DNA from: Candidatus Eiseniibacteriota bacterium
Lineage (GTDB): Bacteria > Patescibacteriota > Microgenomatia > Levybacterales > UBA12049
DNA length: 64,000 bases
Reading direction: 5' to 3'
Assembly: GCA_035631115.1 (NCBI GenBank)
Contig: DASQJJ010000006.1
Location: forward strand, 11,551 to 75,550
Both the position numbers and the translations under genes were made by a program. Below, piece after piece: positions 96 to 64,000 of this stretch (position 1 is its first letter; each line of letters starts with the position of its first letter). The notes below the pieces were generated by a model. That model made no database searches. It was not told where the DNA came from and worked only from the letters and a program-made list of their open reading frames with translations.

Positions 96-656
96 CTAAC
101 GTTCAGGATAATTGCTTAACGCAATTAATTTTGGCAGCATTGCACGGGTTTTTAGCTTTCTTTCTAAAATGCTTTCAATAACAGAAGACATCTGCAGTTG
201 CGCACTTCTTTCGGACCAATACCCAAGCGTTGTAAGAAGAGCAATTTCAAATTCATGGATTCTTTCGGCTACATTGCAGTCTCCGCACAAATCAAATAAG
301 ACACTACTCAGTAAATCAAAAACGTGCCCATTTTCCTGTCCTTCTGGACATAATCCATCTACCAATTCACACAAATGATACGCAAAACCAATCTTTGTTA
401 AGTCTTGTTTTAACTCGCCAAAACTTTCTTTTGTCATTACTTCTGTCAGAATAGGCATGCCCTTACCTTGATACAAGGACAAAATTGAATAGTTAAGAGG
501 CTCTATGTGAGAAGACCTTTTACTGGTAATTTTTCGAACCCCTGCTGCTTTTATAGACATTTTTCCAAATTTTCGGGTAAAAATGGTAAGAATTCTATCT
601 GCCTCTCCACTATTGCGGCGTTTTAAAACAATTCCTTCAACGACAATTCGATTCAT
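96..656 (-). CDS. recO: DNA repair protein RecO
   Basis: 186 aa; N-terminal OB-fold signature MNRIVVEGIVLKRRNSGEADRILTIFTRKFGKMSIKAAG followed by Cys-rich region (CPEG...CGDC) typical of RecO. Confidence 0.8.
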   Translation of the reverse strand: MNRIVVEGIVLKRRNSGEADRILTIFTRKFGKMSIKAAGVRKITSKRSSHIEPLNYSILSLYQGKGMPILTEVMTKESFGELKQDLTKIGFAYHLCELVDGLCPEGQENGHVFDLLSSVLFDLCGDCNVAERIHEFEIALLTTLGYWSERSAQLQMSSVIESILERKLKTRAMLPKLIALSNYPER

Positions 657-662
657 GGGCAG

Positions 663-2624
663 TTATCTTACGGCAAGATTGAGTGTTTTATCGGTATCGA
701 GAGTAAAGGAATCAACTTGTCTGTTTCCCACGTTTACTGTGTAGACGATTCCATCGGTTCCTGGTTGTTTTTGAATTAAGACAGGTAAGTTACTTGAGCT
801 TACCTTGAATGGCAATTCATAGCTTATCGTATATGTTGCTGCCCCTAGTGGGCGTACTGTTACAAATCCTTCAAAGACTGTTTTACCTAATTCGTCGTAT
901 GAGATAACTTTTACCTCCGAGCCAGTACTGCTTACCAGCTTACTTCCTTTTGGTACGTACACTCGTACAACGTCTCGTTGTATTGCATTTAGACAGAGTC
1001 CTCCATGCTCAAGATTACAATCAGATGGGGCGAATGGATTTTTGTAGCTCAGCGTTACTGTTTTGGTTACACTTCCATCGCCTTTTACTTCGTATTTAGT
1101 GTCTACACTTTCTTTAATAAAAAGGTTAGACTTTGCACCGCCAAAATTTGAATCATTTACATGAAGATAATCTCCTGTAAAAGCAACTATTCTCCCTGCA
1201 GCATTTAAGGATTCAAGGCCAGATTGTGCATCTTTATCTACAAGATTAAACATAATATGTTTTTGATTAATCTCATTAATCATTGTCTGGAATAATGGAC
1301 CCCAGTATAACTTTGGAGAAGAAGCAAATGCTTTTTGCATAATGGCATATAACAAGTCTCCAATAATACCTTTTCTGTTTGATTTAATATATCCAACGGG
1401 CGTATCCGCATATTCTTCCATAGCATAAATAACCTGTGCACACTTGCACTGTGGATCTTCTTTTGTGGTAAAGTGTCCACCATCAACGTCTATATCTCCT
1501 AGAATATTCATTGCGGCAACTAATACGTGCGTATCTAGAGCAATAATACCGCTTACTGGTACATATCCTCCTGCTTTTACGTAAAGCTTATTAAAATCTT
1601 CCATTGATTGCTTAAAGTCAGGAGACATATTCGTATCGCGTAAATTCCATAATGGCTCTTTGGGCAAGTATTTTTGAATAATGCGTGGAGATGCAGGCTT
1701 ATTACCAATGGTTGCGTCTAGATTATATATGTCACTTGACGAATCAACGTGAATAACGCCTTTTTCTAAGCGGAATATAGCGTATGCAGTAATAAATCCA
1801 CCCGTAGGACGCAGTTCTTTATCGTTTTGGAATAACACTAAATATTTTGTCTCTTTTGGCTCGCCAAGAAGTCCTGGCAATACTTTTATAAGAGGCTTTG
1901 CCTCATTAACAAATGTTGTTGCTTCATCAACACCTGTCCGTACTCCTTTTAAGGTATCTTGCACCCTTTGACCTCCTAAAAGTGCTGGGTAGTGACCTGG
2001 ATTAACCTGGTCAATTTCTTTTTGCACAAGATTTAGCTGAGCTCCAATCTCATCTATTTTGGGGGTTACTTTACTCATGGTTGTCACTGCTGTTTGAATT
2101 CTATCTTGTGCCGACCCTCCAACAAAACTATGTGCACCCTTAAGGCCTAATACATCCGCATATGGCTTAATACTATCAACCAAAATCTGTGCCGCCTGGA
2201 GACCATAGACACTTGCATTGGTTAAATGAAGTACATCTGAGTAATAAAAATTCATCAAAGGGACAAAATTGAGATATCCCATATTTTGGACAGATTTTTG
2301 CGTCTTAAGAAGCTCTGGTCTTACCGCTGCCAATTGAGTTGAGGCATCTTCAACATTCTGCTGTTTTAGGGATGCGATAGCAACCTTGGCAACTGCATAA
2401 GTCTTTTTTGCTTGATTGAGCGCTGCAAATCCAGGAATAATAATTCCAAAAAGGACAAATAAAACAACAAATCCGAGTACACCAAGAGCAATATAGGATT
2501 TTCTGCCAAGTTTTAGTCGTTTTTTTGATCTCATGCTAACAAAGTTTGTAGATGTTGTTTTTTTATTCTGAGAAGAAGCTTTCTCCAAATCCATTTTTTC
2601 AAATCCATCCATACGATTAATCAT
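663..2624 (-). CDS. DUF4012-like membrane-anchored protein (N-terminal TM, large extracytoplasmic domain)
   Basis: 653 aa; single N-terminal TM (IALGVLGFVVLFVLFGIIIPGF); motif LVLFQNDKELRPTGGFITAYAIF resembles the conserved 'QN.aElR.tGGfiGsy' core of DUF4012 proteins found beside polysaccharide loci. Confidence 0.55.
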   Translation of the reverse strand: MINRMDGFEKMDLEKASSQNKKTTSTNFVSMRSKKRLKLGRKSYIALGVLGFVVLFVLFGIIIPGFAALNQAKKTYAVAKVAIASLKQQNVEDASTQLAAVRPELLKTQKSVQNMGYLNFVPLMNFYYSDVLHLTNASVYGLQAAQILVDSIKPYADVLGLKGAHSFVGGSAQDRIQTAVTTMSKVTPKIDEIGAQLNLVQKEIDQVNPGHYPALLGGQRVQDTLKGVRTGVDEATTFVNEAKPLIKVLPGLLGEPKETKYLVLFQNDKELRPTGGFITAYAIFRLEKGVIHVDSSSDIYNLDATIGNKPASPRIIQKYLPKEPLWNLRDTNMSPDFKQSMEDFNKLYVKAGGYVPVSGIIALDTHVLVAAMNILGDIDVDGGHFTTKEDPQCKCAQVIYAMEEYADTPVGYIKSNRKGIIGDLLYAIMQKAFASSPKLYWGPLFQTMINEINQKHIMFNLVDKDAQSGLESLNAAGRIVAFTGDYLHVNDSNFGGAKSNLFIKESVDTKYEVKGDGSVTKTVTLSYKNPFAPSDCNLEHGGLCLNAIQRDVVRVYVPKGSKLVSSTGSEVKVISYDELGKTVFEGFVTVRPLGAATYTISYELPFKVSSSNLPVLIQKQPGTDGIVYTVNVGNRQVDSFTLDTDKTLNLAVR

Positions 2625-2652: not shown

Positions 2653-3318
2653 TTAGAGAGCACCTTTGCCCGAAATCATCGCCCATGGAGTTTGGAGAAT
2701 TATAGCAATATCATACATGATTGATCTTTTATGTACATACTCCGCGTCCATAGCAATCCTTTTATCAAAATTTATTTGCGACCGTCCACTCACTTGCCAG
2801 AATCCTGTAAGGCCAGGCTTTACCGACAACACGACTTTTACTGCATCTTTTGTGCTTGGGTAATTTTTCTGCTGATCTCTGAGCTCGTCTGGGTAATATG
2901 CACGAGGACCAACCAAACTCATATCTCCCATTAAAATATTAACTAGTTGCGGAACCTCGTCTAATGAATATTTTCTAATAATTCTTCCAACAGGGGTAAT
3001 TCGAGGATCGTTTTTTAATTTATAGCTTCCTTTTTTATAATCCTCAAAAAGATTGGCAAATTGAGGATTTTCCCTAAGGATTTCATGTGCATTTCGCACC
3101 ATAGAGCGAAATTTATACATTTTAAAAAGCTTTCCGCTTTTACCCACTCTCTGCGGGGTATCTGCCAAAATAGGTCCAGGAGAGCTTAACCAAATAGCAA
3201 TAATAACAATTATGATAACCGGAGAGAAAATAACAAGCAAGAAAAGGGCAAAAAGAATATCCAATAGTCTTTTTGTTGCTTCGTATAGTTGGCTTTTTTT
3301 CACTTCTTTCACTGGCAT
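2653..3318 (-). CDS. polyprenyl-phosphate sugar phosphotransferase (bacterial sugar transferase, WbaP/WcaJ C-terminal-domain type); initiating enzyme
   Basis: 221 aa; N-terminal TM then KRLLDILFA...PVIIIVIIAIWLSSPGPIL...KLFKMYKFRSM...DEVPQLVNILMGDMSLVGPR, the Bac_transf family signature. Confidence 0.85.
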   Translation of the reverse strand: MPVKEVKKSQLYEATKRLLDILFALFLLVIFSPVIIIVIIAIWLSSPGPILADTPQRVGKSGKLFKMYKFRSMVRNAHEILRENPQFANLFEDYKKGSYKLKNDPRITPVGRIIRKYSLDEVPQLVNILMGDMSLVGPRAYYPDELRDQQKNYPSTKDAVKVVLSVKPGLTGFWQVSGRSQINFDKRIAMDAEYVHKRSIMYDIAIILQTPWAMISGKGAL

Positions 3319-3321
3319 AGA

Positions 3322-4407
3322 TTATGTTAGGTGCTCTAAATCTGTGCCATTTAATTTTTCGACAAATTTCTTAATTTTGGGTACAGAATCCTTTGGACAC
3401 ACGAGGATAACATCTTTTGTATTCACCACAATCATATCTTTTAAATCAATTCCCACCACTAATTGGTGGGTAAAATTGTACATAAGAGTATCTGTACAAT
3501 CTTCGACAGCAACTTCTCCTTTTGTGACATTTTCTGTTTCGGTATCTGACAAGGCTTCTTTAAGCGCTTCCCATGCTCCAATATCACTCCATCCTAAATC
3601 TATAGAAATAACTCTCCCAAAAGAGGGGTCCATCTTTTCCAAAACAGCATTATCGAAGCTTATTTTTTCTATCTTCGGGTACATTTCATGAAGTTTTGCT
3701 TCGTATGCGTCTGTGCCATATGCTAATTGGATTTCTTGAAGATCTTTAAAGAGCTCTGGAGAAAACTGCTTAAAAAGCTTCCACAAAAATCGTGGAGTAG
3801 TAACAAAATATCCTAAATTCCATCCATGCTTTCCATCTTTTACCCATTTTTCTGCCGTTGACAAATGTGGTCTGTACATAAAGCTTTTAAATGCATGTAA
3901 AGGAAAGTCCCCTTCTGCCTCTGTTGCATCTTCGAATTCAATATAGCCAAGATTTTGATTGGGAAAACGAGGCTTTTGGGCAACAAAAACTATTTTTTCG
4001 GGATTTTTTTTCACGTATTTTTCTGCAGCGCGTAAAACGTCTCTAAATAATGCCTCTTCCCGTACCAAATGGTCACTTCCCCATAAGAGTGCAATCGGCT
4101 CGTCTGGATTGGTTTTTTCAAAAAGGGAGGTTACTAGACCTACTGCTGGACCCACATCTCTCATCTCTGGCTCAACAAGTACGTGGTCTTTTGGTAATTC
4201 AGGCAACTGAAGACTTACATGATCTGCGTAATGCGCTCCTGTAGAAATATAAATATCATTCCATCCGTAGGTTGGAAAAAGCTTACCTACAGTAATCTGA
4301 AGCATTGTCTTGTCCCCTATTATTTTTTCAAATTGCTTCGGAGCATTTTTTCTAGAGAGTGGCCATAGCCTACTTCCAACTCCTCCTGCAAACATAACAA
4401 TCTTCAT
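3322..4407 (-). CDS. manC: mannose-1-phosphate guanylyltransferase (GDP-mannose pyrophosphorylase)
   Basis: 361 aa; MKIVMFAGGVGSRLWPLSRKNAPKQF nucleotidyltransferase loop and overall length/organisation of ManC/GMP family. Confidence 0.8.
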   Translation of the reverse strand: MKIVMFAGGVGSRLWPLSRKNAPKQFEKIIGDKTMLQITVGKLFPTYGWNDIYISTGAHYADHVSLQLPELPKDHVLVEPEMRDVGPAVGLVTSLFEKTNPDEPIALLWGSDHLVREEALFRDVLRAAEKYVKKNPEKIVFVAQKPRFPNQNLGYIEFEDATEAEGDFPLHAFKSFMYRPHLSTAEKWVKDGKHGWNLGYFVTTPRFLWKLFKQFSPELFKDLQEIQLAYGTDAYEAKLHEMYPKIEKISFDNAVLEKMDPSFGRVISIDLGWSDIGAWEALKEALSDTETENVTKGEVAVEDCTDTLMYNFTHQLVVGIDLKDMIVVNTKDVILVCPKDSVPKIKKFVEKLNGTDLEHLT

Positions 4408-5543
4408 AAATTTTTTAGCACTTGTTTTACTTGCTTTTGTACATTCTTTCGAAACTCTTTTTCGGTAAATCTTAGGGCTTCTTTTTTACAAGTATGACTA
4501 TTATACCGGCTCGCGCGAAACCTTTTCAATACCCCAACAAGACTGTCCACTGTTTGCCTGTCAAAAAATATTCCTGTTTTACCTTCTCTGATTATTTCTA
4601 CTGCTCCTCCTGCTTTGTAAGCAATAACTGGCTTACCAAAAGAAAGCGCTTCTACCATAGTAAGTCCAAAATCCTCTTTTCCAGGAAAAATAAGCGCTTT
4701 ACAATTGGCATAATATAAAGCAAGCTGTTGGTCGCTTACTTTCCCAGTAAAATGAACAGTCGGACCAGCAAACTCCTTAAGATACCGACTATCTCCATCT
4801 CCTACAATAACTAACGACGCATTTAATTTTGTAGCAGCCTTCACAGCTAAATCAATTCTCTTATAGCTCGTAAAAGGAGAGAGACGCGAGACAACCAAAA
4901 AATATCCCTTTTCAAAAAGTCTCGTCTTTGTAGCTTTTGGAATACGAGGAATTGATGGATATACAACAACAGATTCTTGACCATAGTATTTTTTTATTCT
5001 CCTGCTGACTTCTTTTGAAATCGCAATGTAGCTGTTGGGAAAAGAAGCAATATATCTATCCCATTTTCTTAATATCCAAATAAGCGGATATGTAAGAAAG
5101 CGAAAATCTGTATTGGAAAAGTATTCATTGTATCCACTCCATAAATACCTTGTCGGAGTAAGACAAATACATATATGCACTGTGTCCTTGGGAAGAAGAA
5201 TACCTTTTGCAAATTCACTTGTTACAGAAATAACCAGGTCGTACTTTTTAAAGGAAAATGATGCAAAGGCAAATGGCATAAGGAAGGGAAAAAGCTCGTG
5301 ATGAGATTTTATAAAAGGGATACGTTGCAAAAAAGATGTACGGACACGAAATGTCTTTGCCCACTGTGCTTTTTTCTTGTCATACACCGATGTGTATAAA
5401 GGAGCATTCGGAAAGATTTTGTGAAGGGATAATAATACCCTCTCAGCTCCTCCCCATTTATTAACACGATCATAGACTATTGCAACTTTCATAAAAGTGT
5501 ATATGCGGGCAGTATTACCAACTAGGCAGAGGTAGAAAAACAA
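4404..5543 (-). CDS. glycosyltransferase family 4 (GT-B)
   Basis: C-terminal EGFGLTMVEALSFGKPVIAYKAGGAVEII motif; likely true start at internal Met (MKVAIVYDRV, ~5492) because the annotated N-terminus overlaps the upstream gene. Confidence 0.8.
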   Translation of the reverse strand: MFFYLCLVGNTARIYTFMKVAIVYDRVNKWGGAERVLLSLHKIFPNAPLYTSVYDKKKAQWAKTFRVRTSFLQRIPFIKSHHELFPFLMPFAFASFSFKKYDLVISVTSEFAKGILLPKDTVHICICLTPTRYLWSGYNEYFSNTDFRFLTYPLIWILRKWDRYIASFPNSYIAISKEVSRRIKKYYGQESVVVYPSIPRIPKATKTRLFEKGYFLVVSRLSPFTSYKRIDLAVKAATKLNASLVIVGDGDSRYLKEFAGPTVHFTGKVSDQQLALYYANCKALIFPGKEDFGLTMVEALSFGKPVIAYKAGGAVEIIREGKTGIFFDRQTVDSLVGVLKRFRASRYNSHTCKKEALRFTEKEFRKNVQKQVKQVLKNL

Positions 5544-6658
5544 CTTTCATATAAAGAATATGTTAGTTGTGCCATTTTTTTCCATGAGAATGTCTTTGCT
5601 CTTTTTACTCCTGCCTCTTTTTTCTGATTAATATGCGTAACTTCATGGTTATACGCTATCATAAGTGTTTTGGCAATATTTTCTTTATTGTATGGGTCAA
5701 AATATACTGCCGATTCTCCACACACCTCCAAAAAGGAAGGAATTTCAGAGCAGAGGACAAGACATTTGTGATGCATCGCCTCAAGTGCTGGCAACCCAAA
5801 ACCCTCCATAAGAGATGGTGCAACCAGGGCTATCGCATGATGGTACATATAAGAAAGCTGCGAGTCTGTTGTGTGTTTGTAAAAAAGAATATTGGAAAAT
5901 TGTCGTTGTTGTATTTCTTTTTCTAATTTCTTAGAAAAATAGTCTTCTTTCCCAACCAAAATAAGATGGACTTCTGCGTGTGTTTTTTGCACTGCGGCAA
6001 AGGCTTCTATAAGTCTTAAAACATTCTTGTGCGGATAGACATTCCCAACATACAGAAAATATTTTTCTGGCACATCAATTTTTTCTTGTGTTTCAAATTT
6101 TTGGTCTATTCCTTCTGGTGTTATCGATACCTTTTCAGGTTGTGGGTGATAATGATCTATTATTTCCTGCTTGGTTGCACCACTAACAGCAATTATTTTT
6201 TGAGAATGGGCAATAGCATTTTTTAAGACAAATTTATATCCCACTTGCTTAAGGAAATATAACGGCGCAAATAATGTTGAAGCTTTCCCTGTTGAAAAAT
6301 GATCGATTATTAAATCGTGAATAGTAATAACAAATTTTCCTTTATACGAGATTGGGTATGAAAAATAAGGAAAATGAACAAGGTCTAATTTTTGCTCTTC
6401 AAGTATCTTTTTAAATTCTTTTTGCTCGTCAAATGTATGCCAGCGAATATCTGCCAAAACTTTTCTAAAATTCTCCCCAGGAAGCGGGACAGACTCATAT
6501 TCTTCCTTACGGAAAAATAATATATACTCATTTTTGGTGTCTATTTCTGAAAGTTGAAGTACTAAATTACGAATATATCGTCCGACCCCTGTCTCGTACC
6601 ACAACCGACAATCAATTCCAATTTTCATATTATTTTGTATTTTTTTTGTGTAATGCAT
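5522..6658 (-). CDS. glycosyltransferase family 4 (GT-B)
   Basis: MKIGIDCRLW N-terminus (probable true start ~6628), C-terminal EGFGLPALEAMHHKCLVLCSEIPSFLEV. Confidence 0.8.
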   Translation of the reverse strand: MHYTKKIQNNMKIGIDCRLWYETGVGRYIRNLVLQLSEIDTKNEYILFFRKEEYESVPLPGENFRKVLADIRWHTFDEQKEFKKILEEQKLDLVHFPYFSYPISYKGKFVITIHDLIIDHFSTGKASTLFAPLYFLKQVGYKFVLKNAIAHSQKIIAVSGATKQEIIDHYHPQPEKVSITPEGIDQKFETQEKIDVPEKYFLYVGNVYPHKNVLRLIEAFAAVQKTHAEVHLILVGKEDYFSKKLEKEIQQRQFSNILFYKHTTDSQLSYMYHHAIALVAPSLMEGFGLPALEAMHHKCLVLCSEIPSFLEVCGESAVYFDPYNKENIAKTLMIAYNHEVTHINQKKEAGVKRAKTFSWKKMAQLTYSLYESCFSTSA

Positions 6659-7562
6659 CTATTCCCTTCATCACTAACCAGGAAAGTATTGGGTGATGAG
6701 ATGAATAGTTTTTCTTGTAAAAAATTCTCATTGCGTCAAAGCGCCAGCCTTGTACCTTTTTACGAATGTCATTATTGGCTGTTGTAATATTTTGCGAGTG
6801 TTTTTTTATACCACTAGATACACCACCTAAATGTAAAATTTTTACATCAGGTACATAATATATTTTGTATCCTTCTTGCCACACGTCATAACAAAATTGT
6901 AAATCTTCCCCATAGAAAAAATAATCCTCATCCCACCATCCAATTTTCTCTCCAACATCTCGTCTTGTAAGCAAAAATGCTCCAACACCTGCAGGAATTG
7001 TGTGAATTCTTGCTAGGTCTTCCCATCCTCTGGTGTACCCTGCAAAGACCCGAGAATGAGGGAATAATTTTTCTAGGCCCGAAAAATGAGTAAATGCATT
7101 CCAGGGCGTAGGAAAGCCTCTATGCGACGCCTCATCTATTGCACCACTAGGAATTTCCACTCGACACGTACTTACTCCTGCATCTGGTGTATTGTCCATA
7201 AATTCAATCATTCGAGTGAGGGTTTTGGGATACACAATCGTATCAGGGTTAAGGAATAAAACATACTTTCCTTTTGCATACGGGACACCTTTATTATTTC
7301 CTGCAGCAAATCCAATATTTCCCCCATTATCAACAACATCAAAAAATTTTGTCTTTGTTGTTTTTTGGTATTCTTGAAACATTTGTAGCGATTTATCTGG
7401 AGAAGCATTGTCGGTAAGGATTATTTGGAAGACCCCAGATGCTGTTTCTTTTGGGTAATTAGTTTCAATCGACCTCACCGCCTCAAGAGTAATGAGTTTT
7501 GTATTGTAATTAAGAATAATTATGGACAGATGTGGTGTATTATTTTTTGATTGCTTCATCAT
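6630..7562 (-). CDS. glycosyltransferase family 2 (GT-A)
   Basis: LSIIILNYNTKLITLEAVRSI...ILTDNASPD... DxD-containing GT-A core. Confidence 0.75.
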   Translation of the reverse strand: MMKQSKNNTPHLSIIILNYNTKLITLEAVRSIETNYPKETASGVFQIILTDNASPDKSLQMFQEYQKTTKTKFFDVVDNGGNIGFAAGNNKGVPYAKGKYVLFLNPDTIVYPKTLTRMIEFMDNTPDAGVSTCRVEIPSGAIDEASHRGFPTPWNAFTHFSGLEKLFPHSRVFAGYTRGWEDLARIHTIPAGVGAFLLTRRDVGEKIGWWDEDYFFYGEDLQFCYDVWQEGYKIYYVPDVKILHLGGVSSGIKKHSQNITTANNDIRKKVQGWRFDAMRIFYKKNYSSHHPILSWLVMKGIDALHKKNTK

Positions 7563-8748
7563 ATACCTCCTCTAACTGTTTTGTAATTTTTTCCCATGAA
7601 TATTGCTCTTCAATTAATTGTCTCGCTTGTTTTCTTATTGTATTATATAGTTTTGTATTATCTAAAAGTGCTACAAGAGCACTGCACAGTTCTTGAGAAG
7701 TTTGCCCAATAAGTGCGTGTTTTTTATTTTTCGCGTTAAGTCCCTCTATTCCAAGCTGTGTTGTTACAACAGGAACCCCACTAGACATTGCCTCCAAAAT
7801 TTTATAGCTTGTTCCACCCCCAACTCGAATAGGAGACAACAGAATGTCTGCATGTTTATAAATATCTGATGTTTTGTGAGAAGCGTTTTCATCAAAAATA
7901 ATACTTTGACTCGCGTATTTTTTAATAGTATTTGGTATATGTTTGCCAACAATCAATAATTTTATTCTTCCTCTATTTTTATTTTCTCTTTTTTCTATAA
8001 GTGGCCATATGTCTTTGAGTATCCACAGTGCAGTATTTCTATTTTGAATCCACTTAAAGTCCCCCATAAAAAGAATTGTCTTCTCAACTTTTTTGTTTTT
8101 ACCCTGAGCGAGTGGAGCGAGTCGAACGGGCTTATATGGGAAATCCGAAAGATTAACGCCATTTGGCACGACTTTACTGTCTATCCTCATTTGCTTTGCC
8201 TCAACCTCCGATACACCAACAACCTCTGCTGCATTTTCCCATGCTTTTTTCTCCCAGTATTTTATTTTCTCAACATCAATTTGGAGAAGTGGCTTAAGAA
8301 GAAATGGCGCATTGTCAACAAATCGCTGATACACTGCATACTCTATGTTGTGCTCTACCAAAACAATTGGTACTGTTGTGTCAGGTACATTTTGTGCAAC
8401 ATAAAATGTCTCAATATGAACAACATCAAACACCTCATCTTTTAGAAGCTTTGTGAGTATTGTCTTCATATGTGGCAGTGTATGTCCTGCAAGAAGAAAT
8501 GGCAAAGAAGAAATGGCAGTTTTTACTACCACTTCCGCAGACCATTGTTTTTTTCTATCAACAACAAAAATTTCTTTACAGAATTTTCTTACAGCATCTA
8601 TGTCTTCTTTTGTTTGGTGTGTTCTTTTTTCGCAAACAAGCGTTATTTCGTGTCGCTTGGAAAGCTCTTTAATAAGATTAAATAGCCGAATGTGACCACC
8701 AGAAAAAAGTGGATACGGAAGAAATGACGAGACGATAAGCACTCTCAT
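7540..8748 (-). CDS. glycosyltransferase family 4 (GT-B)
   Basis: MRVLIVSSFLPYPLFSGGHIRLFNL N-domain and C-terminal GGTSYKILEAMSSGVPVVTT motif. Confidence 0.8.
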   Translation of the reverse strand: MRVLIVSSFLPYPLFSGGHIRLFNLIKELSKRHEITLVCEKRTHQTKEDIDAVRKFCKEIFVVDRKKQWSAEVVVKTAISSLPFLLAGHTLPHMKTILTKLLKDEVFDVVHIETFYVAQNVPDTTVPIVLVEHNIEYAVYQRFVDNAPFLLKPLLQIDVEKIKYWEKKAWENAAEVVGVSEVEAKQMRIDSKVVPNGVNLSDFPYKPVRLAPLAQGKNKKVEKTILFMGDFKWIQNRNTALWILKDIWPLIEKRENKNRGRIKLLIVGKHIPNTIKKYASQSIIFDENASHKTSDIYKHADILLSPIRVGGGTSYKILEAMSSGVPVVTTQLGIEGLNAKNKKHALIGQTSQELCSALVALLDNTKLYNTIRKQARQLIEEQYSWEKITKQLEEVYDEAIKK

Positions 8749-14747: not shown

Positions 14748-14782
14748 AATTTTGTTCGGGGTCCTGTCGACTCGTCACCCCT

Positions 14783-15907: not shown

Positions 15908-15910
15908 ATT

Positions 15911-22710: not shown

Positions 22711-22714
22711 ATTT

Positions 22715-44012: not shown

Positions 44013-44015
44013 ATG

Positions 44016-57406: not shown

Positions 57407-58658
57407 TTTTCTTTTCTTCATCTGGCCATAAATAGGCTGTGATAAATACAAGGGACAAATATCCAACATGACTATTGTTAAAATACCGAGCAAAATACCA
57501 AAAAACAAATAAGAAAAGACCATAACACACAATAAGCTTACTTACAGTGGGCTTCTTCCAAAAGTACCAACTGAGAAGAAGTAAAACAGGCAGTCCAATA
57601 CCCAATTGCCACAATTGGAATGGATAGTACATATGGACATCTTTAATAAATCCGAGCTGGTTAAGCACCATTCCAAATCCATACCCAGAGATAGGATAGC
57701 TATGCTCGACGTTTCCCGATAGATAATACACAGTGCTCGCGAGAAACGACTTTGAATCCCAAAGATAAAATGGAACAATGCATATTGCTGCAACCAGTAA
57801 AAAACTACTTATATTTTTGATAAATACCATACCCCTTTCCCACATAGTTTTCTTTTCCCTCAACGCATACTGAAAGATAAACAAAAAATATAACGGGACA
57901 AAAAGCCATGTTGACTGCTTTGTGGCAAAAGATAGAGCAATCGGAATTCCTGACCAAAATAATTTTTTCTTCTGGAGTAAGAAAAATCCTACAAAAAGAA
58001 AGGCGTAGGCGAATATGTCAGACCTTCCTTCTAGGGTATACCCCAACATGGCAGGATTAAAAGCAAGAAGTGTTATAAGAAGACGCTTATTTTCTCCTTC
58101 CTTTGGTACAAAATATGCTGTAACCAAAAGAATGCCAAAAAGTAACCAAAGCACTTCCCTGCTATCGAAATATCCCAATGTATGATTTGAAATAATGTAA
58201 AAAGGTAATGGAAATACCAGGTAAACTGGCTCCATAACAAAATGGTATAAAGCTGGATTTACTTCTGTATCCGAGTAATGCCATGCCTGCATTGGCGTAC
58301 CAAAATATGTTTCTTTATAAGGATTTTTGCCATGAATAAAATACCGTATTGCTGCCTCCTGCTGTAGGATTATGTCATGAACGCCATATACTGGAGCTGT
58401 CTGATGTCTTACCACCATACTTGAGTAAAATCCACTTCCCAAAACAACTACAACAACAAAAAAAAGAAGAGTTGTTTTGATAAAAGAATATGCCTTTTGC
58501 GAAATTGCTAAAAGGTCTGCAACAATATATCCAAGAAGCAGTAAGAAAATAATTCCGAAAAGTATGTATGGAGTATCTCCTGACGAAAGTCGATACTGCA
58601 TAACAAAAAATATTACCAAAGGGAAAAGAATAACAGAGGATAAGGCAATGCGATTCAT
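57384..58658 (-). CDS. polytopic membrane protein, DUF2029/GT87-like mannosyltransferase candidate
   Basis: 424 aa, more than 10 TM helices; LEGRSDIFAYAFLFVGFFLLQKKKLFWSGIPIALSFATKQSTWLFVPLYFL resembles GT87/DUF2029 central region. Confidence 0.4.
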   Translation of the reverse strand: MNRIALSSVILFPLVIFFVMQYRLSSGDTPYILFGIIFLLLLGYIVADLLAISQKAYSFIKTTLLFFVVVVVLGSGFYSSMVVRHQTAPVYGVHDIILQQEAAIRYFIHGKNPYKETYFGTPMQAWHYSDTEVNPALYHFVMEPVYLVFPLPFYIISNHTLGYFDSREVLWLLFGILLVTAYFVPKEGENKRLLITLLAFNPAMLGYTLEGRSDIFAYAFLFVGFFLLQKKKLFWSGIPIALSFATKQSTWLFVPLYFLFIFQYALREKKTMWERGMVFIKNISSFLLVAAICIVPFYLWDSKSFLASTVYYLSGNVEHSYPISGYGFGMVLNQLGFIKDVHMYYPFQLWQLGIGLPVLLLLSWYFWKKPTVSKLIVCYGLFLFVFWYFARYFNNSHVGYLSLVFITAYLWPDEEKKITVGKGL

Positions 58659-61123
58659 ATATTTTTACTTCTCTTAGTAATCGTAAAACCTATAAATAGG
58701 AAAAGCAAGCTACCAATCCCGCATAAAACAAATCCTAGCGCAACGGACTCAGGCTGATAGACAAAAACAACAGTATGTTTTCCCTTTGGTACAGCAACAC
58801 TTCGAAAGGTATAGTCTGTTCTTATGAGTATTGTTGGCTTATTATCTACCATTGCTTTCCACCCTGGATAGTCATTATCTGAAAGAAAAAGAAGTGTATC
58901 TTTATTTGTTGTTACGTCTACAACAACTTTTTCAGGTGAGTATGTTGTAATTTTTGCCTTTCCCTCGATTGGAATAGAAGAAGGAGAAATTTTTGGATTT
59001 CGTACAACAACAACCTGTTTTCTCATATTTGTACTATCACTAAAAAGATAGGAAAATGTTTTTTGAGGGTCAGAAGAAATAATATAATTATCAACTAAAA
59101 ACGCTCTTGGAAATGCTGTCGTATTTTCATAGAGGGAATATATTCCATCTGTCCACACTTTTTGAAATTGTTTTTGTGTATCAAGCGCTATAAATGCTTC
59201 GTCTTCATCTAGATTTCTTGCAGCTATATACTTTACTCCCAATAGATTAAGTGCTTTTGTTAGGTATATATTTCTTTGTATTTCTGAAAGTTTGCCAACT
59301 GTGACAAATTGTGCATCTGCGCGAATTACATTAGGTGTATATGTACCTTTATTTTTGGTTGCCTCAACAAATTCTCCATATCGTTTTATGTAAAATGAAT
59401 CGTACCCTTCTGGGGATTGAAGCGAATAATTTGTAGCAAAATTTCTATCTATATATCCTTGTCCTATACTCCAAAATCTATTTACCCCAATTCGCTTAGA
59501 CAGCTCTGAAATAACTGGAGTGGAAGGATATACAAACCGTCTTTCAGAAAAGTATATATACTTTGTTGCAAAAAGAAAAATACTTACAACAAGAAGAACT
59601 ATATAACCAATACTTTGTATCTTTTTTACACTGACATTTTTTATGAATACAAGGGCTGCAAGCAAAATTACCCCTATAACAAAAACTGTTGGAATAAATA
59701 AGTTGTGATACGTAATTATCGAAAACTCTCCTAGTGGATTTGCTTTTTTTTGAAAAATAACAAAAATCCATCCTGCAGTAAGGCTAAGTATAAGAATAAG
59801 AGAAGAAAAAAATAAAGAAATCTTTGCCTTATTTTCCCTAAACAAATCCCAGCCAAATCCTGCCAAAACGGCAAGAGAAAAAGATGAAAGAATAAATATT
59901 CTCGATGGGAGTATTGTTGAAATGATTGGCAGATGCAAATTGTATAAAAGAAATCTGCTTGTTGGTAAAGACATTCCCAGAGAAAGTGTTATTATCCATG
60001 CAAGAGTAAAAAAAAGACTCACTGGAGATTTTCTCCAGTGCAGTAGCGCAACAAGACCAAAGAAAAGACCGACAACTCCTACAAAAAGCACTTGTTCGTA
60101 ATAGAATCCTTTCCCAAAATAATTATATGTTGCAGGATTTCCAAGAAAGTCAGGAACAATATAGGTAATAAGATGCCAAGGGGCAATAAGGTACGTGTCA
60201 AAAAGGAATTTGGCATCCGTTGTCCCCCTTGCTGAATATTTAAATGATTCTAGGTTAGGGAGAATGTGAGGTGCACTAAGAAGAAACGATATTCCAAATC
60301 CTACAATTACCCATAAAAAGGTTTTTATCTTCTTTGTTTGAAACAGAAGAAAAACAGCCCAAAGAAATGACAAAAGCAGTGCGTAGAGACTACTCTGAAA
60401 CCACCCTGAGAGAATAGAAAGCGTACATCCTCCAACAATACAACCAAACCATATAATTCTTTTCTCCTGGAAAAATCTCTGAATACCCAAAAGAATAAGA
60501 GGTAAGAAAAGGATTGAATACACGGCCATGAAAGACTCTTCTGTTAAAACAAGTAATGTTCCAGAAAATCCAAAGGTTACCGCTCCAATAACTGATGCCA
60601 GTACTGACAATTTTAGTGACCTTAAAAAATAATACGTAAAAATACATGCAAGTAACGGTCCTACGATAACAACCAAAGACCATGCATCAATAAAAGGCAG
60701 AAGAAGAAAAAGTAAGGTAAGTGGAAAAAATACCGCAGATTGATACGTTGCCAAATGGGTATTACCAGCAAAGTCATAGGGATTCCACATAGGTAACTGG
60801 AGTTGCTTTAATGAATCTATAGTTAGGTGACGCAGGGGATAGAAAATGCGAAGACTATCAAAGCCTATTGGCTTATTCGCTGGACCATTTGGATATTCAG
60901 GTAGTGGATACGACTTCCATGGTTGGTAAAATGACACGAGTAAATTTCCTGCAAAAGGGACTTTCCCGGTGGTAAAATACGGATAAAAAACGACACATGT
61001 TACAAAAATAAATAAAAGTATTGGAAATAGGTATATATATTTCTTAAACATTTCTATATTCTTTCTTTCGCAAACCACTCCTGTGTTGCATGATACATTT
61101 CTTTTGAAGAGACTCCAAACCAT
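58655..61123 (-). CDS. YfhO-like polytopic membrane glycosyltransferase candidate
   Basis: 822 aa; C-terminal DNDYPGWKAMVDNKPTILIRTDYTFRSVAVPKGKHTVVFVYQP + TM anchor (close to the YfhO consensus); probable true start MFKKYIYLF (~61051), just after the upstream gene's stop. Confidence 0.6.
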   Translation of the reverse strand: MVWSLFKRNVSCNTGVVCERKNIEMFKKYIYLFPILLFIFVTCVVFYPYFTTGKVPFAGNLLVSFYQPWKSYPLPEYPNGPANKPIGFDSLRIFYPLRHLTIDSLKQLQLPMWNPYDFAGNTHLATYQSAVFFPLTLLFLLLPFIDAWSLVVIVGPLLACIFTYYFLRSLKLSVLASVIGAVTFGFSGTLLVLTEESFMAVYSILFLPLILLGIQRFFQEKRIIWFGCIVGGCTLSILSGWFQSSLYALLLSFLWAVFLLFQTKKIKTFLWVIVGFGISFLLSAPHILPNLESFKYSARGTTDAKFLFDTYLIAPWHLITYIVPDFLGNPATYNYFGKGFYYEQVLFVGVVGLFFGLVALLHWRKSPVSLFFTLAWIITLSLGMSLPTSRFLLYNLHLPIISTILPSRIFILSSFSLAVLAGFGWDLFRENKAKISLFFSSLILILSLTAGWIFVIFQKKANPLGEFSIITYHNLFIPTVFVIGVILLAALVFIKNVSVKKIQSIGYIVLLVVSIFLFATKYIYFSERRFVYPSTPVISELSKRIGVNRFWSIGQGYIDRNFATNYSLQSPEGYDSFYIKRYGEFVEATKNKGTYTPNVIRADAQFVTVGKLSEIQRNIYLTKALNLLGVKYIAARNLDEDEAFIALDTQKQFQKVWTDGIYSLYENTTAFPRAFLVDNYIISSDPQKTFSYLFSDSTNMRKQVVVVRNPKISPSSIPIEGKAKITTYSPEKVVVDVTTNKDTLLFLSDNDYPGWKAMVDNKPTILIRTDYTFRSVAVPKGKHTVVFVYQPESVALGFVLCGIGSLLFLFIGFTITKRSKNI

Positions 61124-62562
61124 AACTGTTTTGTAAATTCTTCTTTAGAAAGACTATCTAGTGTGTACAATGCAACACCATTAATATACATAACAGGCAA
61201 GGAAATTTCCTTCTGTGCTTTCTGGGACGCGGCAATACCAATTCGCATTCCATGCTCTTCATCAACAAGGCCATCCATGTCTGCCGTAAGACTTACCCCA
61301 GAGCTGAGCGTTGCGCTTTGATTATGATAGTCATAAAACGAAAATTTTTTATGTGGGTATTTTCTTGTCAAAGTCCGTACTACTTTTTGTCCAAATGCAT
61401 AGGTAGTATTGGTGCTAAAATTAATTTCTTCAAATACCTTTAAAACACTCCCTGTGATGAGTACGACAAGAATACATACCGTGATAATGGCATACTTTTT
61501 ATATACTTTTGTCAAAATGTATCCTACGAGGATAAATACCCAAGGATGCAGATACATAAGATAGCTCTCGTATAATGGTGTTCGGGAATACCTCATAAAA
61601 AATACGGCAATAACTAGTGCAAAAATAATTCCTCCTATTGTCTTACTTGATCTATCTTTTATGAGAAAAAATACTATTGAAGCAATAAGCAAAATTGCTG
61701 TACCATATCCTACAATTGTGTATCCTCCAATTATTCCTGCAAGGGATTTGGGCCAAAAAAGAAAAATGTATGTTTTCCAATTTCTTCCCAATACATCGAG
61801 AGACACGTTGTATTGGTCATGTAGATAATACTGCAGCATGTTGTGTGTATTAAAAAAATGATGTTGCACATCAAATGTTATTAGAGGAGTAAATGGAATA
61901 AGCAGTCCAACTGTCATGAAAAAAATATATTTAAAAGAAATTCTACCTACCATACCTATTCCAATCAGCAGTGGTATGAGAAGAACTCCTTCTAAGTGAG
62001 TATTAACTGCGATTCCCACACTTAGTCCTGTGAGAAAAAGATAGAAAGATTTTTTTGTCGCAAAAAATCTTTCAAGACAAAAAAGAGAAATCGCTGAGTA
62101 GACAGCTATGGGAGATTGATTTGTTAAGTTAACAGACTGTGAAATATTTGCAGCCGATGTTGCAACAAAAAGTCCAACAATAATTCCCATTGTTTTTCCT
62201 CCTATTTTTTGACCAATATATATAAGCAAATATACGCTCGCGCAATACATGAGAGTAATAAAAATCCATGGGGATAGTATCCACCATGGATTCCATACCA
62301 TCCCAAGGATAATAAGCCAGTACCACTCTGGACCCGTAACAAATGGTCCTGCAGAAGAGAATGGACCAAGGATAGGAAGTGTAAAGTGCAACAATGCATA
62401 TCGTGCAACAAGCGCATCATGAATTTGATCGTATGCAAAACCCCAACGCATGTCGTAATGATAAAAACGCAGGAAAATAGTGAAAAGAAGGATGAAGAGC
62501 GTCGCGATTGTATACCAATTTTTTCTAGAAAAGCGAAAAAGCTGTATTATTTTCTTATTCAT
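61054..62562 (-). CDS. GT-C fold membrane glycosyltransferase candidate
   Basis: 502 aa, about 12 TM helices, N-terminal loop LRFYHYDMRWGFAYDQIHDALVARYALLHFTLPILGPFSSAGPFVTGPEWYW. Confidence 0.45.
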   Translation of the reverse strand: MNKKIIQLFRFSRKNWYTIATLFILLFTIFLRFYHYDMRWGFAYDQIHDALVARYALLHFTLPILGPFSSAGPFVTGPEWYWLIILGMVWNPWWILSPWIFITLMYCASVYLLIYIGQKIGGKTMGIIVGLFVATSAANISQSVNLTNQSPIAVYSAISLFCLERFFATKKSFYLFLTGLSVGIAVNTHLEGVLLIPLLIGIGMVGRISFKYIFFMTVGLLIPFTPLITFDVQHHFFNTHNMLQYYLHDQYNVSLDVLGRNWKTYIFLFWPKSLAGIIGGYTIVGYGTAILLIASIVFFLIKDRSSKTIGGIIFALVIAVFFMRYSRTPLYESYLMYLHPWVFILVGYILTKVYKKYAIITVCILVVLITGSVLKVFEEINFSTNTTYAFGQKVVRTLTRKYPHKKFSFYDYHNQSATLSSGVSLTADMDGLVDEEHGMRIGIAASQKAQKEISLPVMYINGVALYTLDSLSKEEFTKQLWFGVSSKEMYHATQEWFAKERI

Positions 62563-63307
62563 GAAATCGGTAGTAAAACAAAGCTTTCAATGCCTTAACT
62601 CCATCACGAATTGTATGAAGCTTTTTTCCTTCATCATAAGACCTTGGAGTTGTTGTTATTGGTACTTCTTGAATTATTAGTCCGTTTTTGATTAATTTTG
62701 CAGTAAGCTCTGGCTCCAGCTCAAACCCTTTTGCATCTAAGTGTAACTTTTTACCTATTTCTGTTGGGAATAATTTATAGCATGTTTCCATATCGGTAAT
62801 CCATTGTCCATACAAAGCGCTTGTTAATAAGCTTAACATTCTATTACCAACATAATGCAATAAAAATCTTCCTGTCCGTTCTTCTTTTTCTAGATGGGGC
62901 AACCTTTTTAATCTTGTTCCATACACTACGGATGTATTTCCTTTTATTAAAGATGCTAGTATTGCAATTTGCGTTGGATTATATTCTAAGTCTGCATCTT
63001 GAATTATGGAGTAATCACCTGTTGCATGAGAAATTGCAGTAACAATAGCAGCGCCTTTCCCTTTATTGTTTTTATGCTGATAGAAGAAAATATTCTTCTT
63101 TTTCTGGGCGATTTTTTTTAGAATATCTGCTGTTTTATCGCTTGATCCATCGTCAACAATAATTATTTCTTTTTCCATATTTGGAATTGACACATCGGTT
63201 ACTCTTTCAATAACTTGCTGCACTGTCTTTTCCTCATTAAATACGGGAATAAGTATAGATAATTTCATCTTAAGAACTCCTCTTAATAACTTCCCTATCT
63301 GACTCAA
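62555..63307 (-). CDS. polyprenol-phosphate mannosyl/glycosyl-transferase (DPM1/Ppm1-like GT2, soluble)
   Basis: KLSILIPVFNEEKTVQQVIERV...KEIIIVDDGSSDKTADIL...QHKNNKGKGAAIVTAISHATGDYSIIQDADLEYNP. Confidence 0.7.
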   Translation of the reverse strand: MSQIGKLLRGVLKMKLSILIPVFNEEKTVQQVIERVTDVSIPNMEKEIIIVDDGSSDKTADILKKIAQKKKNIFFYQHKNNKGKGAAIVTAISHATGDYSIIQDADLEYNPTQIAILASLIKGNTSVVYGTRLKRLPHLEKEERTGRFLLHYVGNRMLSLLTSALYGQWITDMETCYKLFPTEIGKKLHLDAKGFELEPELTAKLIKNGLIIQEVPITTTPRSYDEGKKLHTIRDGVKALKALFYYRFHE

Positions 63308-64000
63308 CTACCATTCTCTGAATTCTTTGTCTTTCTTGCAAGACTTTTCCCAAATGCCCTACTGCGAGAAAAAATCCATATATCATTCCCATATTCCCTT
63401 TGAATAATGCTTTTAAAAGAAAATAAGGAACAAAAATATAATGACTAAGAAGAATCATTTTATCAGTTGCGTTAAGCCACGTAAAGTAGAATTGATTTCT
63501 ATATGCTATTTTTGTAACGCTAAAAGGGGTGTAATTCTTCTTTATAGATCCTCTGTCGTGTTCGTGACGAACAACACTCTCTTTCTCAAATACAACAGTA
63601 TACCCTGCTTTTTGAGCCCTGTAAGAAAGATCTATATCTTCCCAATAAAATGGGTTATATAATTCATTTAGTCCTCCAATTTTGTCCCAGATTTCTTTTT
63701 TAAATGCACCGCTTCCACATGATACCCAAAGGGTTGTTTTTTTATCTAATTCTCCTGGACCATGAATAAGAAATCCTTTGCGCCATTTTCCAACACCTCT
63801 TCCGCGTAATACAACTTTTTCATTTTCTATACTTTCATCCATACAGCCAACGGCAAAAACCTTTTTGTCGGAAAAATGCTGAAGAAGGGGGAAAAGAAAG
63901 TCTTTACGTGGGACAACATCTGTATTAAGAAGAATAAGTATATCTCCACTTGCTTTCGCAACACCCTTATTGACATTTCCCGAAAACCCCTTATTCTTCC
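63270..64000 (-). CDS. glycosyltransferase family 2, 5-prime partial (runs off window end)
   Basis: Reading frame stays open upstream of the first Met (63842) to the window edge. The upstream part translates to ...GFSGNVNKGVAKASGDILILLNTDVVPRKDFL..., a GT-A N-domain, and continues into SCGSGAFKKEIWDKIGGLNELYNPFYWEDIDLSYRAQKAGY. Confidence 0.65.
   Translation of the reverse strand, partial: KNKGFSGNVNKGVAKASGDILILLNTDVVPRKDFLFPLLQHFSDKKVFAVGCMDESIENEKVVLRGRGVGKWRKGFLIHGPGELDKKTTLWVSCGSGAFKKEIWDKIGGLNELYNPFYWEDIDLSYRAQKAGYTVVFEKESVVRHEHDRGSIKKNYTPFSVTKIAYRNQFYFTWLNATDKMILLSHYIFVPYFLLKALFKGNMGMIYGFFLAVGHLGKVLQERQRIQRMVVESDREVIKRSS

Follow-up and report, generated by a model that had tools for sequence, protein, structure and literature searches.

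A probable cell-envelope glycan region of at least 63 kb, dense in GT-C membrane glycosyltransferases, in a Levybacteria-like bacterium of the Candidate Phyla Radiation

We examined a stretch of 64,000 nucleotides from contig DASQJJ010000006.1 of assembly GCA_035631115.1 (positions 11,551 to 75,550), referred to as the window, which we take to come from a bacterium of the Candidate Phyla Radiation (CPR). We conclude, with a probability of about 70%, that it carries one contiguous region for cell-envelope glycan synthesis, at least 63 kb long, made up of several conserved modules in which two biosynthetic logics coexist. Between positions 663 and 64000, 51 genes for envelope glycan synthesis lie back to back, and RecO (g01) is the only gene outside the cluster (genes are numbered g01 to g52; Table 1). 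An earlier reading of this DNA, made from the letters and the open reading frames (ORFs) and called here the sequence-only reading, had described about 64 kb as a single supercluster; the gene content and back-to-back layout stand, while RecO falls outside and the word ‘single’ goes beyond the evidence.

RESULTS

The window is filled with genes for glycan synthesis

The window contains 52 ORFs of at least 150 amino acids, which sum to 99.5% of its length, and one ORF of 130 amino acids. The minus strand carries 48 of the 52 genes, with three short plus-strand insertions (g23, g27-28 and g47), such that the three co-directional blocks proposed earlier are only approximately right. Gene junctions are tight, as had been claimed, but most gaps range from -29 to +35 bp and are not confined to overlaps or 1-4 bp; there are also some gaps of 76-80 bp and one of 214 bp. 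The starts of the longest ORFs are too far upstream for several genes (48854-49064, 31812-31922 and 61052-61123); with the starts that gene callers use and homologs support, the 211-bp overlap of g42 and g43 vanishes, as do the extra N-terminal stretches of g26 and g49.

To assign families, we scanned all 52 ORFs with Pfam and NCBIfam, and then used profile-profile comparison with hhalign, the domains of homologs and structure prediction. Pfam identifies 20 soluble glycosyltransferases (GTs), close to the 21 or so counted previously: nine belong to GT4/GT-B (g05, g06, g08, g13, g14, g28, g33, g37 and g40) and eleven to GT2/GT-A (g07, g11, g15, g17, g23, g32, g35, g38, g42, g51 and g52). The membrane transferases of the GT-C type amount to 14 firm and one tentative, that is, nine PMT_2/ArnT-like proteins (based on Pfam, homologs and hhalign), five of the YfhO superfamily (one by Pfam, the rest by profile-profile comparison) and the weakly GT87-like g48. 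These numbers agree with the earlier estimates of 8-9, 5-6 and at least 14 periplasmic-face transferases in all. Eight GT-C genes, g43 to g50, follow one another, and there are 16 in ~65 kb if a YfhO paralog just past the window is counted.

The other components of a glycan pathway that had been named from the sequence were also found: one initiating phosphoglycosyltransferase (g03), four GT2 proteins that resemble polyprenol-phosphate sugar synthases in NCBIfam (g15, g51, g38 and g23, where 3-4 had been counted), a Wzx-type flippase (g39), an O-antigen-ligase-like domain (the WaaL/Wzy_C-like N-terminal half of g10), and enzymes that make or tailor sugar nucleotides. The last group includes ManC, four short-chain dehydrogenase/reductases (SDR), two methyltransferases, a sulfotransferase, an acetyltransferase, an APH-type kinase, a split transketolase-like pair and a cupin.

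Large membrane proteins related to GT-C enzymes

Pfam by itself sees seven of the GT-C proteins, six as PMT_2 (g09, g36 and g43-46) and one as YfhO (g49). Direct Pfam and NCBIfam scans (E up to 5) returned nothing for g24, g25, g26, g30, g39 and g47, and for g16 only a weak match to the MmpA family (1.9e-8); all of these proteins except g25 were then placed through homologs, hhalign or structure. The sequence-only reading had allowed that such searches might assign the large membrane proteins to transporters or other families. Instead, they are relatives of GT-C-fold enzymes, and only the Wzx-like g39 is of a transporter type.

The gathering threshold of PMT_2 (PF13231) is passed by g09, g36, g43, g44, g45 and g46, and is failed by g47, g50, g30 and the C-terminal half of g10. 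Among the former, g43 scores best on PTPS_related and is counted with the YfhO superfamily, and g46 also matches the PMT family proper (4.4e-10). Among the latter, g47 has no direct Pfam match, and its ~50%-identical homologs carry PF13231 and are named GT39; g50 aligns to the PMT_2 profile over 372 columns (hhalign, 97.5%, E=8.8e-12); and the g30 family, which comprises g30 and the g10 C-terminal half based on blastp, aligns to the same profile at 95.9% and E=5.5e-9 (family profile A3). The YfhO threshold (PF09586) is passed only by g49 (83.4 bits), and g16, g24, g26 and g43 have no significant direct match. Nevertheless, hhalign against the YfhO profile yields 99.9% (E=5.7e-33) for g24, 99.1% for g43 and 98.8%, almost end to end, for the g26 family, to which g16 is linked in turn (98.5%, E=3.9e-15). 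Distant homologs of g24 carry PF09586, and the C-terminus of g16 resembles that of g49. The link of the g26 family is seen only profile against profile, as the g26-family profile did not match the single sequences of g49 and g24. Based on these comparisons, g16, g24, g26 and g43 are relatives within the YfhO superfamily, and not Pfam members.

The g26 family has 121 homologs at E<=1e-5, and none of the 120 listed carries a Pfam domain. The AlphaFold2 model of g26 (pLDDT 91.9) retrieved only GT-C enzymes with Foldseek: AftD (5e-8), STT3, DPY19, PglB, AftA and ArnT. Similarly, the model of g10 matches AftA, AftB, PimE and ALG enzymes. Sequence searches of the PDB, by phmmer or with profiles, gave no significant match for g30, g39 or the profiles of the g26, g25, g30 and PMT_2 families, with ArnT appearing only at E=0.13.

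The GT-C candidates also share a topology and a motif. By a heuristic based on hydropathy and Lys/Arg content, 13 of the 15 candidates begin with a short Lys/Arg-bearing N-terminus and a first transmembrane segment (TM1), followed by a first loop of 33-155 amino acids; they have 6-14 transmembrane segments (TM) in total. The heuristic gave g48 a first loop of 9 amino acids and 6 TM, and the GT-C domain of g10 was left out of it. An acidic Asp/Glu motif stands shortly after TM1, as would suit the outward-facing catalytic loops that the sequence-only reading proposed to look for. Enzymes of the GT-C fold have a cytoplasmic N-terminus, TM1, a long outer loop with conserved acidic residues and 8-13 or more TM; the candidates share this architecture, with weaker evidence for g48. 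In 53 members of the g26 family, D41 is invariant and D42 is at least 90% conserved (the motif is GGDD in g26); D572 and D573 are conserved in the g10 family, and D45 and E46 in the PMT_2 set.

Candidate lipid-sugar synthases are encoded directly beside GT-C genes

GT2 genes resembling polyprenol-phosphate sugar synthases sit directly beside GT-C genes. The best match is that of g15, which aligns over nearly its full length with both ArnC-like NF007986 and PgfS; g51 is AglJ-like, g38 is PpgS-like over most of the profile, and g23 is weakly AglJ-like. The scores of g15, g51 and g38 are all under the equivalog cut-offs, and the assignments are to families, not to orthologs. Genes g16 and g15 share a 4-bp overlap, g52-g51-g50-g49-g48 form a series of overlapping genes, the Wzx-like g39 is adjacent to g38, g37 and g36, and g23 converges on g24. 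Such GT-A/GT-C pairings recur in other genomes, as described below.

The components of a lipid-linked oligosaccharide (LLO) pathway are present as well. The g03 protein scores 206 bits on Bac_transf and 250.8 bits on TIGR03025 (cut-off 295.55), of which it has the C-terminal catalytic domain only, and ManC (g04) is predicted to supply GDP-mannose. The g39 homologs (E ~1e-20) match Polysacc_synt with 66.8 bits and also Polysacc_synt_3, whereas g39 itself has no direct Pfam match. A scan of metagenomes with g39 returned no relatives. In four other loci, a g15-like GT2 gene comes directly after a g39-like gene. The g39 protein could serve the LLO route, a route through lipid-linked monosaccharides, or both.

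The 130-amino-acid ORF was considered as a candidate small flippase of the GtrA type and was rejected, as it is soluble and cupin/FdtA-like; it is conserved in a relative (L016) and probably encodes a sugar ketoisomerase. The sub-block g18-g22 (20718-24983), with its APH-type kinase, Sulfotransfer_3 enzyme, SDR and split transketolase-like pair, occurs in the same relative and partly in the Levybacteria locus L003; its content hints at sulfated or phosphorylated sugars, or at sugars with unusual branching.

Conserved modules recur across the CPR

To place the window among other genomes, we used CPR loci and contigs (L-numbers), of which 76 metagenome loci held a g26-family gene. The sequence-only reading had asked whether the block is conserved or variable among relatives, and we found that its modules recur across the CPR, separately and in other orders. 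A relative, GCA_964408485.1, has a g26 ortholog that is 71% identical and is colinear with the window across g17-g34; the g17-g23 block is colinear in the relative L016.

One module has the order g26-g25-(g34)-g16-g15-g14-g13-g12-g11-g10 and runs on contiguously in L020, L038 and L092, with an extra gene in between here and there, while in the window the g17-g24 block divides it. A second module (g38, g40, g42, PMT_2 arrays, g49, g50 and g51) is common to Levy-, Shapiro-, Collier- and Beckwithbacteria; up to seven PMT_2 genes occur per ~20 kb (in L011 and L012), and a g51-like GT2 gene lies directly upstream of PMT_2 genes in L004, L005, L006 and L008. In Levybacteria at ~53% identity (L003), the gene order differs, and the two modules (g26...g10 and g38-g52) lie apart in other CPR contigs. 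Thus, judged from gene order, the window is a concatenation of conserved, separable modules, and dense GT-C arrays are likely a trait across Microgenomates-type CPR and not an oddity of this genome.

The tandem genes g44-46 share only 32-39% identity in blastp, and g45 and g46 have separate orthologs, with 53-59% identity, in L002 and L003. Old and retained duplications suggest that the paralogs have distinct specificities, for linkages or acceptors, and are not redundant.

A partner protein and conserved fusions

The g25 protein, which has an outer domain of ~175 amino acids, matches nothing in Pfam or in PDB sequences, and a g25-like gene follows 20 of 66 g26-like genes. Two kinds of fusion connect it to GT-C proteins. 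The N-terminal domain of g24 matches g25 (5e-25, blastp), which makes g24 a g25-like domain fused to a YfhO-like GT-C domain, and a g25-like domain is fused to a g16-like GT-C domain in L032:12124-16218 and L033:12124-16134 (ORFs of 1,337-1,365 amino acids). These Rosetta-stone fusions argue that g25 is a partner subunit and suggest that g25 and the GT-C protein may form a two-subunit enzyme. It has been speculated that, for some GT-C enzymes, a separate protein is required to bind the acceptor (PMC8035078), and a partner role for g25 would fit this.

The fusion of a WaaL/Wzy-like domain to a GT-C domain in g10 is kept at full length in ~40 representative clusters. Each half of g10 is also found as a separate protein. 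The gene g14 encodes only half of a GT4 enzyme; a pseudogene is ruled out, as this half-size gene is conserved beside a full GT4 gene in other CPR loci (L092, L038, L020, L022 and L023).

DISCUSSION

Two proposed routes to an envelope glycan

In the scheme that we infer, including its donors, its acceptors, the order of its steps and whether it yields one or several products, two routes would run side by side. In the LLO route, g03 would prime polyprenol phosphate and the 16 soluble GT4 and GT2 enzymes that are not synthase-like would extend the glycan in the cytoplasm, using sugar nucleotides made by ManC, the four SDR proteins and the split transketolase-like pair. Methyl-, acetyl- and sulfotransferases and the kinase would decorate the product, g39 would flip it, and the N-terminal domain of g10 would polymerise it or ligate it to an acceptor. 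In the monosaccharide route, g15, g51, g38 and g23 would charge polyprenol phosphate with single sugars. For g51 the sugar would most likely be mannose, taken from GDP-mannose, since the presence of both ManC and a DPM1-like protein makes mannose a likely donor. Once flipped to the outer face, the lipid-linked monosaccharides would be used there by the 14-15 GT-C enzymes for the extension or decoration of a polymer, secreted proteins, or both.

The sequence-only reading had proposed a combinatorial system of extracytoplasmic glycosylation, fed by polyprenol-phosphate-linked monosaccharides, in place of a single repeat-unit pathway. The feeding by lipid-linked monosaccharides remains the best interpretation of the GT-C fold and the GT-A/GT-C adjacency, while ‘combinatorial’ claims more than the data show. 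The contrast with a repeat-unit pathway is too sharp, because both logics are present, with what looks like a complete LLO pathway (phosphoglycosyltransferase, 16 soluble GTs, the Wzx-like g39 and the WaaL/Wzy-like domain of g10). Rather than one proven combinatorial machine, the region is better read as a Wzx/Wzy-type pathway combined with several multi-component transmembrane glycosylation systems.

Several observations weigh against this reading. Among the ORFs of at least 150 amino acids, which make up 99.5% of the window length, and the single smaller ORF examined, there is no GtrA-type small flippase (3-4 TM). The window encodes no ABC exporter and no candidate acceptor protein, and the Pfam families of Wzz/PCP chain-length regulators and LCP proteins are missing among its 52 ORFs. 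The Wzx assignment of g39 is transitive only. The g48 matches to GT87 (5.5e-5) and to the AZOBR_p60025 family (8.5e-5) are below every curated threshold, and hhalign found no relation of g48 to the PMT_2 profile, so that g48 stays a tentative GT-C protein. As the modules lie apart in other genomes, their co-location need not mean one pathway. Finally, a GT-C-like fold is no proof of catalysis.

Alternative interpretations

If the modules are independent loci for several glycoconjugates, merely co-located in a streamlined genome, then the region has no function at the level of the whole. The separate occurrence of the two modules and the different order in L003 are consistent with such an island, and the strand switches, together with the gaps of 76-80 bp and of 214 bp, point to more than one transcription unit. 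But the whole region has a single phosphoglycosyltransferase, a single Wzx-like gene and a single Wzy/WaaL-like domain, which makes shared steps between the modules probable; nearly all junctions are tight or overlapping, and gene order is kept in the relative with the 71%-identical g26 ortholog. We consider a mere island unlikely. We are about equally sceptical that the PMT_2/GT39-like arrays (g09, g36, g44-47 and g50) attach mannose to Ser/Thr residues in secreted proteins, in pilins or in an S-layer protein, like actinobacterial and fungal Pmt, with the Wzy_C-like domain of g10 acting as a PglL-type O-oligosaccharyltransferase. That proposal draws on the PMT and PMT_2 matches (including that of g46 to PMT proper), the homologs named GT39, the presence of ManC and a DPM1-like GT2, and the best PDB sequence match of the Wzy-like profile, 9rmk (‘Oligosaccharyltransferase’), which at E=0.012 is weak. 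PMT_2 also includes ArnT-type modifiers of lipids and polymers, however, no MIR domain or candidate Ser/Thr-rich acceptor is encoded in the window, and seven paralogs exceed the need of any known protein O-mannosylation system. A somewhat better case, still short of even odds, can be made for most GT-C enzymes acting in sequence outside the membrane on one large heteropolysaccharide, comparable to PimE, MptA, MptB and MptC and to EmbA-C and AftA-D in the synthesis of mycobacterial lipomannan (LM), lipoarabinomannan (LAM) and arabinogalactan. AftD is the structure that the g26 family matches best, the matches of the g10 model include AftA, AftB, PimE and ALG enzymes, g38 resembles the mycobacterial polyprenyl-phosphate-GalNAc synthase PpgS, eight GT-C genes are successive, and the paralogs are anciently diverged with separate orthologs. 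Yet none of the proteins is an ortholog of a mycobacterial enzyme at the sequence level, other genomes carry the modules apart from each other, and an apparently full cytoplasmic LLO pathway with its 16 non-synthase soluble GTs is present.

Two further alternatives question the enzymes and the assembly themselves. MmpA is AftD-like in its N-terminal part, was reported to have no recognisable catalytic domains and affects trehalose-lipid transport (PMC8698533). Based on the weak MmpA match of g16, the g16/g26 family and g25 might be non-catalytic scaffolds or facilitators of lipid transport. This we regard as improbable: the aspartates after TM1, which occupy the hallmark catalytic position of GT-C enzymes, are invariant or nearly so in the g26 family and argue for catalysis nonetheless; the alignment of the family with YfhO-family proteins covers its full length; and g16 is predicted to be translationally coupled to the polyprenol-phosphate-sugar synthase g15. 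A plain transporter, as the same match might imply, was set aside because MmpA itself is AftD-like. An assembly chimera of unrelated contigs, which the sequence-only reading had raised against itself, is very improbable, and we conclude that the window is not chimeric. In an independent MEGAHIT assembly of the same sample, SRR6831646, contig ERZ27257288:k141_221736 of the ENA (73,467 bp) is colinear with window positions 1-61914 (3 mismatches in 16,443 bp) and contig k141_87795 is an exact match to positions 61932-64000. That assembly does break at 61914/61932, but the break falls within the intact g50 ORF, and this speaks against a chimera. The base composition is uniform (31-38% GC), and there is synteny with L016; the NCBI label ‘Candidatus Eisenbacteria’, at odds with homologs that are all Patescibacteria, is the other point in favor of a chimera.

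Comparison with known systems

A framework of a GT-A synthase, a flippase and a GT-C transferase has been described, including Wzx-type flippases and several GT-A/GT-C pairs that share one flippase, with the Gram-positive systems CsbB/GtcA/YfhO, GtlA/GtlB, CsdAB/CD/EF of L. lactis, GacI/J/K/L and PgfS/PgfM (PMC8035078). Similar to these systems, the window has synthase-like GT-A genes next to GT-C genes, and several pairs may coexist; in known systems the place of GtrA can be taken by a flippase of the Wzx type, such as GacK. The match of g15 to PgfS and ArnC is nearly full length, and g49 is a Pfam YfhO member. It differs in that 14-15 GT-C proteins are encoded in one locus, compared to 1-3 per known system, most of them under Pfam thresholds, in that a GtrA-type flippase is missing from the window, and in the CPR-specific accessory protein g25. 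The CPR are, to our knowledge, not known to make teichoic acids.

The mycobacterial enzymes for LM, LAM and arabinogalactan (PimE, Mpt, Emb and AftA-D, with Ppm1 and PpgS) are likewise a large set of GT-C proteins that use polyprenol-phosphate-linked monosaccharides outside the membrane, and AftD and PpgS are the nearest likenesses of the g26 family and g38. Orthology is lacking, and the mycobacterial genes are dispersed over a 4.4-Mb genome, whereas those of the window are packed into ~64 kb of a genome of probably ~1 Mb, a size that is inferred. As in Wzx/Wzy loci for O-antigen or capsule, a phosphoglycosyltransferase and soluble GTs occur together with a Wzx-like flippase, a Wzy_C/WaaL-like domain and genes for tailoring sugar nucleotides, but the Wzy_C-like domain forms a fusion with a GT-C domain (in the ~40 representative clusters), the window has no Wzz/PCP, and the locus is several times the usual size. 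With fungal Pmt1/2/4 and actinobacterial Pmt (GT39) and with ArnT (GT83), the window proteins share PMT/PMT_2 membership and the ‘DE’ in the first outer loop; they differ in their unrelated C-terminal soluble domains, in the absence of MIR domains, and in being seven paralogs plus two of a divergent subfamily.

CPR bacteria (Patescibacteria) are ultrasmall, mostly uncultivated epibionts, and their surface mediates attachment to the host. That a streamlined genome devotes at least 63 kb to glycans and encodes 14-15 outward-facing transferases implies a central place for surface glycans in the biology of this bacterium, with plausible roles in host recognition, phage evasion and envelope integrity. 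Full-text literature searches returned no paper on glycosylation or GT-C enzymes in the CPR. The components are all of known superfamilies; what appears to be undescribed is the scale, the CPR-specific families and the conserved fusions. The new elements are a CPR-wide GT-C family of ~770 amino acids (g26/g16) that lacks a Pfam model, the g25 partner tied to a GT-C enzyme by gene fusions, the conserved WaaL/Wzy-GT-C fusion and the conserved half-size GT4 g14. Profiles for the g26, g25 and g10 families would improve the annotation of thousands of ‘hypothetical’ CPR membrane proteins.

A bolder proposal, which we offer as speculation and think doubtful, is that Microgenomates-type CPR build their main envelope glycan, or a coat on pili or an S-layer, largely outside the membrane, on an assembly line of at least 15 GT-C enzymes fed by polyprenol-phosphate-linked monosaccharides, and so have independently invented the mycobacterial strategy. 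Its core would be a hitherto unrecognised two-subunit GT-C enzyme (catalytic g26/g16 and accessory g25, sometimes fused), the WaaL-GT-C fusion would couple en-bloc transfer to the addition of single sugars, and perhaps at least 5% of a ~1-Mb genome would be devoted to it.

Host, boundaries and features of the window

The nearest genomes are those of Candidatus Levybacteria (53-59% identity for g45 and g46), and we take the host to be a Microgenomates/Levybacteria-like CPR bacterium, based on these relationships. Proteins identical to those of the window, VEW42_00340 and VEW42_00460, are present in an NCBI third-party metagenome-assembled genome on an 88,171-bp contig. These proteins bear the label ‘Candidatus Eisenbacteria bacterium’, while all homologs and syntenic contigs are from Patescibacteria/Levybacteria; the label is probably a taxonomic mislabel or the result of a mis-binned contig.

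Within the 64-kb window, no tRNA genes or Rfam families were matched, and scans for tandem repeats, promoters and terminators gave nothing relevant, with fewer promoter-like sites than expected from shuffled sequence. On the low-coordinate side, RecO is followed outward by the glycyl-tRNA synthetase gene and by the division and cell wall (dcw) genes MraZ, RsmH, a penicillin-binding protein and MurE, and we therefore place the start of the cluster at g02. At the other end, the g52 frame is open to the window end. This gene is not a pseudogene but is merely cut: its full length is 315 amino acids on contig L096, which matches the window without a mismatch over 2069 bp and whose positions 1-1344 hold the rest of g52 and, upstream, another paralog of the YfhO family (g49 is matched at E=5.7e-61). 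The cluster therefore extends past the window. The features are collected in Table 1.

Table 1. Genes of the window, with positions in window coordinates and the evidence for each assignment
Feature	Position	Strand	Evidence or remark
g01 RecO	96..656	minus	Pfam RecO_N, RecO_C; low-coordinate cluster border
g02 DUF4012 membrane protein	663..2624	minus	Pfam E=3e-22; first gene of cluster
g03 small polyprenyl-phosphate glycosylphosphotransferase	2653..3318	minus	Bac_transf 3.5e-61; TIGR03025 3e-74
g04 ManC-like mannose-1-phosphate guanylyltransferase	3322..4407	minus	NTP_transferase and ManC beta-helix; TIGR01479 3e-65
g05, g06 (GT4), g07 (GT2), g08 (GT4)	4404..8748	minus	Pfam
g09 PMT_2-type GT-C	8745..10190	minus	PMT_2 29.3 bits (cut-off 26.1); nine TM; 83-aa first loop
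g10 fusion, 1033 aa: WaaL/Wzy_C-like N-half and PMT/ArnT-like GT-C C-half of g30 family, ‘DDFTW’	10195..13296	minus	
g11 (GT2), g12 (WcaF-like O-acetyltransferase), g13 (GT4), g14 (half GT4)	13268..16441	minus	Pfam; g12 NF007797 1.3e-28
g14, 176 aa, N-terminal Rossmann half of GT4 only	15911..16441	minus	
g15 membrane-anchored GT2, ArnC/PgfS/GtrB-like	16656..17627	minus	NF007986 6e-50; PgfS 1.3e-36; three C-terminal TM
g16 GT-C, g26 family (distant YfhO superfamily)	17624..19684	minus	hhalign against g26 family
g17 (GT2), g18 (APH-type kinase), g19 (sulfotransferase), g20 (SDR), g21 and g22 (split transketolase-like), g23 (GT2, plus)	19691..25767	mixed	Pfam, NCBIfam
g24 g25-like domain (~residues 5-200) and YfhO-like GT-C (residues 264-885)	25724..28426	minus	blastp, hhalign
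g25 accessory membrane protein, 356 aa	28442..29512	minus	gene neighbourhood, fusions
g26 GT-C, 771 aa from corrected start, ‘GGDD’ after TM1	29496..31811	minus	fold, hhalign
g27 (SDR, plus), g28 (GT4, plus), g29 (methyltransferase, minus)	31875..34699	mixed	Pfam
g30 GT-C, PMT_2-related, ‘QQDEW’ after TM1	34674..36362	minus	blastp to g10 C-half; hhalign
g31 (SDR), cupin ORF, g32 (GT2), g33 (GT4), g34 (methyltransferase), g35 (GT2)	36365..41513	minus	Pfam
cupin ORF, 130 aa, weakly FdtA/WxcM-like	37414..37806	minus	in apparent 385-bp gap between g31 and g32
g36 PMT_2-type GT-C	41594..42913	minus	PMT_2 7.3e-15
g37 (GT4), g38 (GT2, PpgS-like synthase candidate)	42906..44834	minus	Pfam; NF058614 1.5e-12
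g39 divergent Wzx/MOP-type flippase, 12 predicted TM	44803..46080	minus	Pfam matches of homologs
g40 (GT4), g41 (SDR), g42 (GT2, 253 aa from corrected start)	46070..48851	minus	Pfam
g43 PTPS_related/YfhO-superfamily GT-C	48854..50494	minus	PTPS_related 4.5e-16; PMT_2; hhalign against YfhO
g44, g45, g46 tandem PMT_2 GT-C, ‘DE’ after TM1	50476..55392	minus	Pfam, blastp
g47 PMT_2/GT39-like GT-C	55472..57406	plus	homologs with PF13231
g48 tentative GT87/DUF2029-like GT-C	57384..58658	minus	GT87, below cut-off
g49 YfhO-family GT-C	58655..61051	minus	Pfam YfhO 1.7e-23
g50 PMT_2-like GT-C	61054..62562	minus	Pfam PMT_2 1.5e-3; hhalign
g51 soluble DPM1/AglJ-like GT2, synthase candidate	62555..63268	minus	TIGR04182 1.2e-34; DPhHxTase 3.4e-14
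g52 GT2, cut by window end	63270..64000	minus	Pfam

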